A DNA stretch of 12,509 nt, taken from Promethearchaeia archaeon (GTDB lineage Archaea > Asgardarchaeota > Lokiarchaeia > Sigyniarchaeales > SOKP01). The DNA is taken from NCBI GenBank assembly GCA_029856105.1, contig JAHQWH010000237.1, positions 1-12,509 of the forward strand, written 5' to 3'. The notes under the pieces were generated by a model that saw nothing but the letters and a program-made list of their open reading frames with translations, ran no database searches and was not told the DNA's origin. This document shows, piece after piece, positions 548 through 5,758 of this stretch (its first letter is position 1; each line of letters opens with the position of its first letter). A program made the position numbers and the translations under genes.

Positions 548-1657
548 TTATTTAATAGGGTATGTTCCTAAGATTTTTTGCCAAATAACGTTTGATTTCA
601 TTTGCTCAAGCGCTTTTTTCGCGCTAGGATCGTTTTTGTCAGCTTCAAAATTCATAAAAAAGATGTATTCCCACCTTCCTTTTTTTCTTGGTCTAGATTC
701 GATTTTTGACAAATTGATCTTAGCGTCTGAAAATATTTTTAAAACCCAATATAGAGCTCCTGGTATGTGTTTAGTTACAAACACGATTGATGTTTTCATT
801 TTTTCAGCTTTTAATGGGTTTTCTAGTTTAGAAATAATTAAAAATCTTGTGAAGTTAGAGGGGTCATCTTCAATATTCGAGTTTAGAACTTTCAAATCGG
901 ATATGCTCGCAGCAAATTCAGTACCAATCGCCGCATAAGATTTATCTGCTAACTCTTTAATTCTTCGCGTAGCTTCGGCAGTTGAGCTAATATCCATTAA
1001 ATTTGCATTTGGTAAGTTGCTTTTTAGCCACGACTTGGCTTGAGCAAATGCTTGGGGGTGTGAAAAAACATTTTTTATGAGAGAAATTTCTGATTCTTTT
1101 AAGCCTATTAAATTCTGGACGACTCTCAGCTCGACTTCTCCGTAAATAAATAGTTCCTTTTCAATTAATAAATCGAGCGTCTCTCGTACGGTTCCATAAA
1201 AGCTATTTTCAATCGGGACAATCCCGTAATCTAATATTTCTTTTTCAATATTATCAAAGATTTCTGAAGTTGAGTTGCACGGAATGAATTCCGTTCCAGC
1301 TTTAGCAAAAGACTCAAGGGCAGCTTGGTGCGTGAAAGTGCCCATTGGACCTAAATATCCGACTTTAGTAACCGTGTCTTGAATAGCTTTACTTGCACTA
1401 ATAATTTCTTTCCAGATGGCTTCCATACTTTCTTTTTCGAATATTGTTGATTTATCTTTGATTCTCTCGATTATTTCAATTTCCCTTTTGGGTTGAAATA
1501 TTTCTAAATTCAGATTTTTCTTTAAATTTCCAATTTTAATTACGATGTTTCCTCTTTTATTCAACAGATCAATGATTTGATCGTCAATTTCGTTAATCTT
1601 TTTTCTGGTCTCTTCTAAATCTTCTTTATAATTCTGTTCTTTGCTCAATTTAACCAC
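548..1657 (-). CDS. pheA: Bifunctional chorismate mutase / prephenate dehydratase (P-protein) with C-terminal ACT domain
   Basis: AroQ-type chorismate mutase domain (RKKINEIDDQIIDLLNKR...PKRE); prephenate dehydratase motifs YLGPMGTFT, VPIENS, SHPQAFAQ and NFTRF; ACT motif NLSKIESRP. GTG start. Confidence 0.96.
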   Translation of the reverse strand: MVKLSKEQNYKEDLEETRKKINEIDDQIIDLLNKRGNIVIKIGNLKKNLNLEIFQPKREIEIIERIKDKSTIFEKESMEAIWKEIISASKAIQDTVTKVGYLGPMGTFTHQAALESFAKAGTEFIPCNSTSEIFDNIEKEILDYGIVPIENSFYGTVRETLDLLIEKELFIYGEVELRVVQNLIGLKESEISLIKNVFSHPQAFAQAKSWLKSNLPNANLMDISSTAEATRRIKELADKSYAAIGTEFAASISDLKVLNSNIEDDPSNFTRFLIISKLENPLKAEKMKTSIVFVTKHIPGALYWVLKIFSDAKINLSKIESRPRKKGRWEYIFFMNFEADKNDPSAKKALEQMKSNVIWQKILGTYPIK

Positions 1658-1703
1658 ACTATAATTATAATAATTATTAAATAAGTATTTACAAAATAAA
1701 TAA

Positions 1704-3380
1704 TTACAAAAGTTTTTGCAAATTTAATTCTAATCCCGCAACGGGGAACTCCAGTTTAAAGTTTAACAATACTTCGGGATGGATTTCTCCAATCTCTCCA
1801 ACCTTTTCACCATTTACATAGATATCCCCATAACGACCGTTAATATAACTAGGGTTCTTCTCAGGCTTAATTTCGTATTTATCGTAAAGCCCAAGTGCAA
1901 TCATTATGAAATCTAAAGTCGACCTTATTTCTGTAAAATCAGCGTCTTCGTGGTACGATGTCGCTGAAAGGTGAATTTCTCTTTTTGCACCTGTTTCCTC
2001 TTCTTTCGAAAGTAAAACGACATCTCCAACTTCAAAGATTCTAATTGGTTTCTCTTCGGATATGTTAAATCGTATCGTTTCCATTAATTTAGGCAGTATT
2101 GAAGTCCGCGTGGTATTGTATTCTTTTGATACAGGGTTTGCAATTTGAATTAACTTGGATTCATCCATCTTTTTGTTCATATAATCGAATTGTTTTTCAG
2201 AATTTGATAAAATGAAATTAAGAACTTCTAAATATCCTGCTCCGACCATAATTCGTCTTATTTTATTAGAAAACGATTGAATAGGGTGATATTCTCCTAC
2301 GCATCCTTCTCGAATGGTTTTTGGTAAATTAAAATAACCATAACCGATCGCAACTTCTTCAGTGAAATCAACTGGATGCATTATGTCACCTCGAAAGGCA
2401 GGAACATAAATGTCTAAATATCCCTTTTTATTGGATCTTTTAGCCCCCATCCTACATTTCTGAAAACATTTAATCATTTCAGCGGCAGATAAATTCAGCC
2501 CAATATAATCGTTAACATAATCAATTTCAACTTCCCATTTTTTTGAATCTAAATTTGGGGTATTAATTTCTTTTTCTCCTTCGTAATTTACTTTTACACT
2601 TTCAATTTTCGCTCCCATGTCTGATAATGTCGTAGATAAGATGTTTAGAGCAAGATTTACGGCGTTAAAATCGGTACCAGTCAAATCTAAGAATAAATTT
2701 TTCGTTTTTTCAGTTACAGTTGTAAGAACTCCGTTTATTATTGGAGGAAACGAAAGAACTTCGTTATTGCTATCAAAAATTACCGGGTAAACGTCTTTCC
2801 CTTCTAAAATGGGAGCGTATTCAATGCCTTTATCGTGAAGTAGTAAAATCTCTTCTAAATTCATGGAATACCCATCTCCATGCAAAGGTGTAAAACTTAC
2901 TGAACCTGGTTCCACGGCAGTATATCTGTATGGGGGTTTTACTTTGTCTAAATCGTGTACTCCAATCGCAACTTTCTTTCTATCTCTTCCAACGGCCCAG
3001 TGAAGGTGCTCTTGAATGGTCATTAAGGTCGCTACCTCGTCCTCATCTAAATCAATATCCCGAACTATTCCACATACGATGTAAGGTCTTACTTTTTTTA
3101 CGCTGGGGTCTACATTCATCACAATGTCGCTTGGTGTTACGTCGAATGAAGGTACACCTAGTTCAATTTCGTAATAACCTTTAAGAGTTCTCGCTATACC
3201 TTCTGGACTAGAAAAATCAGGTCGATTTGGATTATATTCAACTTTGACTTTTTGTTCTTCCTCGTTAATATCTTCTAAATCTAAACCTATCCACTGCAAA
3301 TCGTACTCTAATTCTTTTAGATCTAATTTTTTTCCAACTAATTTTTCTAGTCTTTCAATTTTTAATTCGAGTGTTGGTAT
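1704..3380 (-). CDS. pheT: Phenylalanine--tRNA ligase beta subunit (archaeal type); start extended to ATA at 3380
   Basis: Motifs NRPDFSSPEGIAR, GRDRKKVAIGVHDLD, SFPPIING, RGDIMHPVDFTEEVAIGYG and GEIHPEVL. The frame stays open 27 codons upstream of the TTG at 3299 and gives (M)PTLELKIERLEKLVG, a typical MPT N-terminus, 7 nt after SD-like GAGGCG. Confidence 0.96.
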   Translation of the reverse strand: MPTLELKIERLEKLVGKKLDLKELEYDLQWIGLDLEDINEEEQKVKVEYNPNRPDFSSPEGIARTLKGYYEIELGVPSFDVTPSDIVMNVDPSVKKVRPYIVCGIVRDIDLDEDEVATLMTIQEHLHWAVGRDRKKVAIGVHDLDKVKPPYRYTAVEPGSVSFTPLHGDGYSMNLEEILLLHDKGIEYAPILEGKDVYPVIFDSNNEVLSFPPIINGVLTTVTEKTKNLFLDLTGTDFNAVNLALNILSTTLSDMGAKIESVKVNYEGEKEINTPNLDSKKWEVEIDYVNDYIGLNLSAAEMIKCFQKCRMGAKRSNKKGYLDIYVPAFRGDIMHPVDFTEEVAIGYGYFNLPKTIREGCVGEYHPIQSFSNKIRRIMVGAGYLEVLNFILSNSEKQFDYMNKKMDESKLIQIANPVSKEYNTTRTSILPKLMETIRFNISEEKPIRIFEVGDVVLLSKEEETGAKREIHLSATSYHEDADFTEIRSTLDFIMIALGLYDKYEIKPEKNPSYINGRYGDIYVNGEKVGEIGEIHPEVLLNFKLEFPVAGLELNLQKLL

Positions 3381-3396
3381 TTTTTTTCGCCTCTTT

Positions 3397-4932
3397 TTAA
3401 TATGGTTGTTGTCTTAGCCATTTGATTGGATTAACGTACAAATCTCTAATGTCCTTCCGACCGTAGTATAACATTGCTATACGCTCAAGTCCTTGACCCC
3501 ATGCTAAAACTCGAGTGGGTTCTTTGATGCCCCAAGGATACGTTACTTCTGGCCTAAATATTCCCGAACCTCCCATTTCTAACCATTCTCCTATTTTATC
3601 GTAATACACAGAAACTTCCATACTTGGTTCGGTATACGGAAAAAACCCTGGTCTAGTAATAATTTTTTCAAATCCCATTTTCTTGTAAAATTCTGATAAT
3701 AAACCAATTAAGTCGCTTAAATTTACATGGTCGTCAATTACAATACCTTCTACTTGAGTGAATTCAGCTAAATGTGATTTATCTAATTTTTCGTTTCGGA
3801 AAGTTCTATCGATGCAAAAGACTTTTACAGGAGTTTTTTCGTTGTCTCTATAAAATTTAGCCAAACGCCTTATAGTTGTGGAAGTTGTATGGGTTCTTAA
3901 TACTGTTTGTTTTGCAACATTTTCGTCCCATTTATAACCCCATCCAAGCGAATTAGAATCGCCCCCATTTTCGTGCGTAGCTTTAACAGCCATTACTCTA
4001 TCTTTTTCCGGTAATTTCGCGATTTTTGGATTGTTTAAATAGAAAGTATCTTGTAGTTCGCGGGCCGGATGGTCTTGCGGTTGAAATAACGCGTCAAAGT
4101 TATAAAATGCGCTTTCTACGATCGGTCCTCTTATTTCCGTAAAACCCATCGAAATAAAAATCTCTCTGATTTCGTTAATGAGATTAACGAGAGGATGGTA
4201 TTTTCCCCCTTTCAATGAAGGTCCTGGTTTGGTCACATCAAATGCTTTTAAATTGTAATCTTTCCAAGAGCCAGAGCTAAGCATTTCCGAGGTGAGTTTG
4301 CTTACTTGCTTTAACTCTTTAATCTCAGATAATTTTACATCTCTACCCTTTTTTGTTAGAAAAATAATTCGATGCGTTTTTTTTGATTTTCTTATTAATT
4401 TCCTTTTATTTAGAAGGTCTAAGCATTTCAATTCATATTTTGATAATTTAGAATAGTCGATTATTGGACTCTTTTCGAATTTTTTCAAAAATTTTTCGTC
4501 TTCTGTTGCGGGGAACTCTTCAGCAACGATGAAGATCTTGTTTTCTCCTGTAGCCTTACTTTGAGCGATCCAACGACTCTTCTTCATGTTAGAAAGACCA
4601 ACGTAAAAAATCTTTTTGTCTAGTTTAGATTTGGTAAGGAATTTTGTTATATCAATCTCTTTAATGTCAGATTCAATCAATAAATCAAGCAATCTACGCT
4701 CCGGAAACCCGATCTCTAAATATTTTAACCCCTCATCGTTTAAAGATATTTGATTTAATTCTTCTTCTCTGAACCCACCTAAATTTTGATCGATGAGATC
4801 GTTAATAGCTGCCATGAGTACTATATAATCAACATTTAATTCTTTTGCTAATTCTATTGCCATAAGCTCTGTGCTTTTACTCTTCAGAACTTTGAGAATT
4901 TCAATAACCTGTTTCTTTAATTTAATTGTCAT
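3397..4932 (-). CDS. pheS: Phenylalanine--tRNA ligase alpha subunit (long archaeal/eukaryal type)
   Basis: Motifs FYNFDALFQPQDHPARELQDTFY, LRTHTT, FRNE..D.SHLAEFTQVEG, FPYTEPS, GSGIFRPE and AWGQGLERIAM, with an N-terminal winged-helix-type extension. Confidence 0.98.
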   Translation of the reverse strand: MTIKLKKQVIEILKVLKSKSTELMAIELAKELNVDYIVLMAAINDLIDQNLGGFREEELNQISLNDEGLKYLEIGFPERRLLDLLIESDIKEIDITKFLTKSKLDKKIFYVGLSNMKKSRWIAQSKATGENKIFIVAEEFPATEDEKFLKKFEKSPIIDYSKLSKYELKCLDLLNKRKLIRKSKKTHRIIFLTKKGRDVKLSEIKELKQVSKLTSEMLSSGSWKDYNLKAFDVTKPGPSLKGGKYHPLVNLINEIREIFISMGFTEIRGPIVESAFYNFDALFQPQDHPARELQDTFYLNNPKIAKLPEKDRVMAVKATHENGGDSNSLGWGYKWDENVAKQTVLRTHTTSTTIRRLAKFYRDNEKTPVKVFCIDRTFRNEKLDKSHLAEFTQVEGIVIDDHVNLSDLIGLLSEFYKKMGFEKIITRPGFFPYTEPSMEVSVYYDKIGEWLEMGGSGIFRPEVTYPWGIKEPTRVLAWGQGLERIAMLYYGRKDIRDLYVNPIKWLRQQPY

Positions 4933-5109
4933 GTCTTAAAATCAAAGTCATTTTACTTTTCGTTATATTTTTTCTAAATCATTAACATTTTTAAATCTTT
5001 CGTGGAATTAATCGTTTTAAATTGCTCGTTCATGAATTAGAACGATAACTTGGGATTAAATAAAGTATACAATTAATTATAAAACGATCTACTCTTTTAT
5101 ATAACCGCA

Positions 5110-5292: not shown

Positions 5293-5733
5293 CTACGATA
5301 ATTTTTCGCGAATCGCTGTCGAACTTAAGATATTTTTGTTCCGATCTTTTATCATAGGTATAACAATAATTATTAATGGTGTGAAACTCTTGCTTTCTCT
5401 GATTTCGTTTATTTTTAAGGCGTTTTTATAAGTCTCTTGACTAGCAATGATTCCTTCATATTCTGGTTCGTGAACTGGAGGGCCATATGGGTCGTTTAAC
5501 GGAACTATCTCAACACGATTCAAATATCCTATTGAATCTATAAAAGTTTTCAGGTTTTGTTCCCTTATTTGGTAGTTTTCGATTTTTGTGGCGTGCTTTT
5601 TTTTTTTAAGTAAATTTTCTGTTGCTAAACCTATAACAATCTTTTTAGAAAATAATAACGCCGTTTTAATTAGAAACTTATGTCCATCATGGAGATGGTC
5701 GAAAGTTCCGCCCATTCCGACTTTATTAAAAAT
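5293..5733 (-). CDS. coaD: Phosphopantetheine adenylyltransferase (archaeal/eukaryal type); probable ATT start at 5733
   Basis: GGTFDHLHDGH (HxGH motif), DPYGP, IIASQET, INEIR and LSSTAIR. The first beta strand (NKVGM) lies upstream of the ATG at 5715. There is an in-frame stop at 5746-5748, and SD AAGGTG (5742-5747) lies 8 nt before ATT. Confidence 0.92.
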   Translation of the reverse strand: MFNKVGMGGTFDHLHDGHKFLIKTALLFSKKIVIGLATENLLKKKKHATKIENYQIREQNLKTFIDSIGYLNRVEIVPLNDPYGPPVHEPEYEGIIASQETYKNALKINEIRESKSFTPLIIIVIPMIKDRNKNILSSTAIREKLS

Positions 5734-5758
5734 TTGGGAAACACCTTACTATAAAGCA

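Follow-up and report, generated by a model that had tools for sequence, protein, structure and literature searches.

The stretch of DNA analyzed here (hereafter the window) comprises the 12,509 nucleotides (nt) of contig JAHQWH010000237.1 from an uncultured Promethearchaeota (Loki-type Asgard) archaeon of marine sediment, whose assembly consists of 238 contigs and is ~92% complete. It carries pheT, the gene of the archaeal-type β subunit of phenylalanine–tRNA ligase, and the subject of this article is the codon at which pheT is initiated, which, as judged from comparison with relatives, is very probably ATA. Over its full length, the predicted product matches the profile TIGR00471 (pheT_arch; residues 1–558 to profile positions 1–551 of 551) with 581.2 bits, the cut-off being 282.65. 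Its domains follow the order B1, B3/4, B5, and catalytic-like module (PF18262, PF03483, PF03484, and PF17759). Herein, the B1 model PF18262 covers residues 1–69 from its first profile position, with a score of 23.6 bits that lies just below the cut-off of 26.8. The gene of the partner α subunit, pheS (541.8 bits with NF003210, aligned over 4–510 of 511), adjoins pheT and ends 16 nt upstream of the ATA.

On the minus strand, the pheS stop codon is followed by AAA, the Shine–Dalgarno (SD) site GAGGCGA, a run of A down to position 3381, and then ATA CCA ACA. The SD site begins 3 nt past the pheS stop and ends 6 nt short of the ATA, or 7 nt if counted from GAGGCG. The peptide encoded from the ATA reads IPTLELKIERLEKLVGKK. 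Upstream, the frame is closed by a TAA, and its codons from 3413 to 3300 are GAC AAC AAC CAT ATT AAA AAG AGG CGA AAA AAA ATA CCA ACA ... GAT, with no ATG, GTG, or TTG in frame between that stop and the TTG at 3299 (Table 1). An earlier sequence-only reading of the window had described this region in the same terms, namely the peptide, the lack of a canonical start codon between the stop and the TTG, and an ATA placed 7 nt after GAGGCG and 16 nt after the pheS stop. All of this is borne out, including the coordinates and spacings.

Table 1 Features of the pheT start region, the adjoining genes, and two further genes of the same genome. Positions refer to the window unless another contig of the assembly is given.
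Feature	Position	Strand	Basis or remark
pheT, archaeal-type phenylalanine–tRNA ligase β subunit, 558 amino acids from ATA	1704..3380	-	TIGR00471 and Pfam
ATA, proposed pheT initiation codon	3378..3380	-	Aligned to position 1 of TIGR00471 and PF18262
SD site GAGGCGA	3387..3393	-	One mismatch to perfect GAGGTGA
In-frame TAA closing the pheT frame upstream	3414..3416	-	Read from sequence
pheS stop TAA	3397..3399	-	Read from sequence
In-frame ATT overlapping the pheS stop, rejected as start	3399..3401	-	No SD upstream; TGA of the relatives
TTG, codon 28 from ATA, first canonical start codon, rejected as start	3297..3299	-	Codons of the relatives, selection, B1 domain
pheS, phenylalanine–tRNA ligase α subunit, 511 amino acids, from ATG 4932 to TAA 3399–3397	3397..4932	-	NF003210
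pheA-type P-protein (chorismate mutase, prephenate dehydratase, ACT), GTG start	548..1657	-	PF01817, PF00800, PF01842
uS4 gene, start ATC then GDPRRLKKK	G000:C7:10303-10806 (L131)	-	ATC 6 nt behind GGTGA, TGA two codons upstream
Only SUI1/aIF1 gene of the genome, 118-codon open frame	G000:C34:9092-9448 (L141)	+	

For comparison, pheT was located in 30 genomes of the same order and at 80 further public Promethearchaeota loci, and the codon aligned to the ATA was read. Counted over 90 distinct full or near-full pheT sequences, this codon is ATG in 49, ATA in 16, TTG in 12, ATT in eight, GTG in four, and CTG in one. Without exception, the sequences from the other families of the order begin with ATG, the next residues being Pro-Thr, Pro-Ala, or Pro-Ser. 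On a protein tree of pheT built without the first alignment column, the 16 ATA sequences form one clade (support 95–99), the eight ATT sequences fall in two clades, and CTG is found in one genome. With one ATA clade, two ATT clades, a single CTG, and ATG in the outgroups, a near-cognate codon must therefore, on this tree, have replaced a canonical one at the pheT start at least four times. Aligning orthologous starts was a check that the sequence-only reading had proposed, and its outcome is in favor of the ATA, which is kept by some 15 related species and recurs in 16 distinct sequences of one clade, with ATT in the sister clades. As to the public records themselves, contig DATKTW010000169.1 (L038), titled “Candidatus Nanopelagicaceae bacterium,” holds a Loki-type pheT with an ATA start that is 82% identical to that of the window. 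This contig has probably been mis-binned. In several records under the labels Hod-, Hermod-, or Odinarchaeota, too, a pheT is present that is 77–80% identical to the window’s.

In most relatives, the SD site reads GAGGTGA, and its TGA stands in the pheT frame two to four codons before the ATA. Their open pheT frame spans 560–562 amino acids as compared with the 558-residue match, and an upstream start or a PheS–PheT fusion is thus excluded by the in-frame TGA. The longer upstream open frame of the window exists because its SD site reads GAGGCGA, which contains no TGA. In the window alone, the pheT frame lies in the +1 phase of pheS and extends without a stop back to 3413, and PheT might be taken for an extension of PheS that arises through a +1 frameshift at the stop of pheS, or for a product of the ATT at 3401–3399, with the ATA as an internal isoleucine codon. 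This is extremely improbable given the TGA inside the GAGGTGA of the relatives; furthermore, the ATT is not preceded by an SD site. A related strain (metatranscriptome run X16) also argues against it: it has GAGGTGA for GAGGCGA and one A fewer in the spacer (window 3380–3389), and since this 1-nt deletion falls in the A-run just upstream of the ATA, the stretch is not coding. Both the upstream ATT start and the PheS–PheT fusion were rejected because the in-frame TGA of the relatives contradicts them. Within the population, the distance from SD site to start varies, being 6 or 5 nt behind GAGGYGA.

Selection on codons 2–27 was measured across the 14 ATA or ATT species of the first set (same-order genomes). 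The synonymous divergence (pS) is 0.60 and the nonsynonymous divergence (pN) 0.08, which gives a pN/pS of 0.14, and 13 of the 26 columns vary synonymously only. By this measure, pheT codons 2–27 are under purifying selection. A start at the TTG of codon 28 would yield a PheT without its first 27 residues and leave the frame above it untranslated, and the gene callers of JGI and ENA did choose downstream starts in relatives, with products of 531, 544, and 553 amino acids. Such a start is nevertheless very unlikely, not only on account of the selection on the codons that it would leave out. Codon 28, TTG in the window, is CTG, CTA, or TTA in several relatives, and codon 6, TTG in some relatives, is TTA in the window; as both vary, no canonical codon is conserved within the first 30 codons. 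In addition, B1 and TIGR00471 align from residue 1, and a third of B1 would be lost with the TTG start. The TTG at 3299 was rejected on these three grounds: lack of conservation, selection on codons 2–27, and a cut B1 domain. The proposal of the sequence-only reading, initiation at AUA through SD guidance or re-initiation, is hence supported by the conserved ATA and ATT codons, the selection on the N terminus, the upstream stops, and the nonconserved TTG. There is also a hint, at a P of roughly 0.1, that the weak ATA codon is itself retained: within the ATA clade, it is invariant (15–16 sequences), whereas of the conserved codons with synonymous alternatives, only 8–10% are the same in every member.

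The ATA directly follows a homopolymer of eight A in a metagenome-assembled genome and could on that ground stand for an ATG misread in sequencing or assembly; alternatively, the gene could be decaying. The probability of either is close to negligible. Two other studies yielded contigs that match the window exactly over 3100–3700, although these may be its own source. A contig from an RNA library (depth 2) spans 3243–3465 across the pheS–pheT junction and reads ATA, likewise with no difference from the window. A contig of this kind carries no information on RNA ends, expression level, or the point at which translation begins. Against the A/G error at 3378 that had been raised beforehand, the stronger argument is that ATA occurs in 16 distinct sequences of relatives, which come from genomes assembled independently and form one clade; the error was rejected on this basis. 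Decay is contradicted by an intact, full-length frame that scores 581 bits with TIGR00471.

The 3′ end of the 16S rRNA of this genome reads GGATCACCTCCT, with the anti-SD sequence GGAUCACCUCCU, to which GAGGUGA can accordingly pair perfectly over 7 nt; the GAGGCGA of the window has one mismatch. Among the near-cognate pheT starts (ATA, ATT, and CTG relatives), the SD match is 6 nt or longer in 23 of 24, located 5–7 nt from the codon (one at 9); of the ATG starts, 57% have such a match, at 3–13 nt. This is suggestive of an SD site that compensates for a weak start codon. The pheS–pheT spacer of the ATA clade is 16–17 nt long and that of the ATT clades 11 or 16 nt; in all relatives with ATA, ATT, CTG, or GTG, it stays within 10–17 nt.

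Such a short spacer leads to the question of how far pheT depends on pheS. In a termination–reinitiation scheme, ribosomes would finish pheS, move 16 nt, and restart at the AUA, whereas free subunits would hardly use the site. pheS and pheT encode the subunits of one α2β2 enzyme, the SD site begins as little as 3 nt past the pheS stop, and in Haloferax volcanii, re-initiation at 13/14 nt still reaches 40 to 60% of the native level (PMC10666635). Like the coupled pairs described in archaea and bacteria, the two genes lie on the same strand, serve one complex, and have an SD site at the end of the upstream gene (PMC6728339, PMC10666635). However, coupled pairs typically share 4 or 1 nt (overlaps of −4 or −1 nt being the norm), whereas pheS and pheT are 16 nt apart and do not overlap in any of ~100 loci. 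In H. volcanii, coupling is already much reduced at such a distance and is abolished (nearly zero) at 22–23 nt (PMC10666635). Furthermore, the other ATA, ATT, and ATC starts of the genome are tied to the SD spacing and not to an upstream stop. It is thus rather unlikely that the AUA is used mainly in this manner. Coupling to pheS may contribute and is compatible with SD-led initiation, but is unlikely to be the whole explanation.

No SD site is seen upstream of the pheS ATG, and an A/T-rich, TATA-like box is situated ~30 nt upstream of it (window 4932–4975, minus strand), which suggests that pheS is a leaderless or very short-leader first cistron. pheT would then be an SD-led internal cistron. 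The P-protein gene follows downstream on the same strand, with its GTG start 46 nt past the pheT stop, so that the cluster has the order pheS-pheT-pheA; this phenylalanine-themed cluster occupies 548–4932 of the minus strand. A scan for sigma-70 promoters and intrinsic terminators gave nothing above shuffled sequences, and these models do not apply to archaea.

As the second gene of this cluster, pheT would be translated from AUA as follows. The small ribosomal subunit would be positioned by pairing of the 16S 3′ end GGAUCACCUCCU with GAGGCGA (GAGGUGA in relatives), 5–7 nt upstream of the codon. The initiator Met-tRNA would pair with AUA despite a mismatch at the third position, and the protein would begin with Met-Pro-Thr as in the ATG relatives. 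Ribosomes that complete pheS may also contribute, given that the SD site starts 3 nt past its stop. The anatomy of the site, its conservation, the selection on the N terminus, and the recurrence across the genome are seen in the sequences, whereas the tRNA that initiates, the residue that comes first, the efficiency of the start, and any adjustment of the α:β ratio are what we infer within this scheme.

In a scan of the whole assembly of this one genome, open reading frames were retained if they comprised 80 codons or more, were closed upstream by an in-frame stop, and lacked a canonical start within 15 codons. At 6–7 nt behind a GGTGR core, ATA, ATT, and ATC together occur 24 times and the other 58 sense codons combined 26 times, as compared with 31 and 180 times at the remaining spacings, a 5-fold enrichment (odds ratio 5.4, P = 1.4e-6). 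ATG, TTG, and GTG peak in the same spacing range, with ATG the commonest start behind an SD site in the genome. Ten near-cognate candidates were run against Pfam, and in four of them, the domain begins before the first canonical codon, which confirms several near-cognate starts: Pfam position 1 falls at residue 22 in a DeoC aldolase (first canonical codon 26), residue 10 in a HAD hydrolase (codon 20), residue 7 in an altronate-dehydratase-like protein (GD_AH; codon 80), and residue 2 in a RagA-like GTPase (codon 16). In the uS4 gene, which begins with ATC, the first canonical codon is at position 22. Between the upstream stop and about residue 109, the frame of SUI1/aIF1 is devoid of ATG, GTG, and TTG, and the likely starts are the ATT codons at positions 4 and 9. 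By these sequence comparisons, pheT is not a special case, as ATA, ATT, and ATC starts recur across the genome.

The window itself holds another gene of interest in this respect, encoding a coaD-like cytidylyltransferase (5731–5748, minus strand). Here, a TAA (5748–5746) is followed by four codons and an ATT (5733–5731) with AAGGTG 8 nt upstream. The sole ATG (5715) stands directly before GGTFDHLH, and a start there would remove the first strand of the fold. Translation appears to begin at the ATT.

Several points weigh against an AUA start of pheT. The start is deduced from sequence comparison. The RNA-library contig that reads ATA may be contaminating DNA, and the SD site of the window has one mismatch. 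For the association of a weak start codon with a stronger SD site, the raw Mann–Whitney P of 1e-5 comes from near-cognate cases that mostly belong to four clades, and a tree-aware paired test of SD strength against codon class has two to four contrasts and cannot reach significance. Finally, ARAGORN (with and without introns), an anticodon-stem pattern, and RF00005 gave 20 tRNAs and no initiator in the 92% complete assembly. Two identical 72-nt tRNA-like copies are present (G000:C71:6359-6430, minus strand, and G000:C163:24160-24231, plus strand), whose 3′ ends leave the acceptor stem unclosed; they could represent a split tRNA, the remnant of an integration site, or the end of a contig that is present twice.

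An initiator that is not among the assembly’s tRNAs leaves room for a codon that is corrected or specially read, either because adenosine-to-inosine (A-to-I) editing turns AUA into AUI or because a dedicated initiator tRNA has a changed anticodon. The chance of this is minute. The ATT and CTG of the sister clades cannot be converted to AUG by A-to-I editing, and the RNA-library contig reads ATA; RNA editing was rejected for these reasons. Also against a corrected or specially read codon is that ATG is still the commonest start behind an SD site in the genome.

Weak start codons in real, conserved genes are familiar from Escherichia coli, in which infC (AUU) is autoregulated and pcnB also starts with AUU. 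pheT resembles these genes in having a start of the AUU class in a real, conserved gene. In the feedback loop of infC, however, the product IF3 itself rejects weak codons, whereas the product of pheT is the β subunit of PheRS and not an initiation factor. As PheT has no known role in start-codon choice, no loop of the infC type is expected. The best precedent for an AUA start of pheT, albeit a bacterial one, is Staphylococcus aureus, where AUA and AUU starts with an extended SD site (infC AUA, ccpN AUA, cvfC1 AUU, and citZ AUA) give ~10–30% of the AUG reporter output (PMC13009471). Common to both is a near-cognate start, AUA or AUU, that immediately follows a long SD site at good spacing, with the odd codon and the SD site kept in relatives and a conserved N terminus that lacks canonical starts. 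Noncanonical initiation codons that affect annotation are reported to be used in Deinococcus deserti as well (PMC2830850). Both S. aureus, with IF3 as proofreader, and D. deserti are bacteria, the starts being mapped by ribosome profiling and reporters in the former (PMC13009471) and reportedly proven by N-terminal proteomics in the latter, whereas the case of pheT is archaeal, involves aIF1, aIF1A, and aIF2, and is read from sequence. Moreover, unlike the S. aureus cases, pheT encodes a subunit of an essential housekeeping enzyme, and its start is one among many of this kind in the genome.

As for Asgard archaea, full-text literature searches returned no description of ATA, ATT, or ATC starts, and in a review, SD motifs did not look prevalent in Prometheoarchaeum. 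ATA is listed as a possible start in NCBI genetic code table 11, and the NCBI record of one relative (P0007, 558 amino acids, MPTLEL...) already begins PheT at the ATA, other pipelines giving 531–553 amino acids. What is new here is the phylogenetic depth, as deduced from the sequences compared, with one clade of 16 sequences that keeps ATA and at least four independent switches at one site. In practical terms, common gene callers shorten PheT in many public records (531–553 versus 558 amino acids). Other genes of these genomes that start at ATA, ATT, or ATC are expected to be truncated likewise, which distorts the protein families derived from Asgard metagenomes.

Archaea choose their start codons with eukaryote-like factors (aIF1, aIF1A, and aIF2) in combination with an SD pairing of the bacterial type. 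For the trade-off between SD strength and proofreading by factors, a lineage neighboring eukaryotes in whose essential genes AUA and AUU are tolerated would be a natural system. Within it, the pheT site offers a clean test case, with four independent near-cognate switches, a fixed SD site, and ATG sister species as controls. We tentatively put forward, as an idea somewhat more likely to fail than to hold, that a genus-level group of Lokiarchaeia has relaxed its discrimination at the third position of the start codon, so that AUA, AUU, and AUC (occasionally CUG) behind a long SD site are regular for housekeeping genes including pheT, uS4, and aIF1, and that the AUA of pheT is held by selection across the 16-sequence clade, for example, for the balance of β to α. 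If true, this relaxed stringency would be a natural, lineage-wide shift of start codons in close archaeal relatives of eukaryotes.

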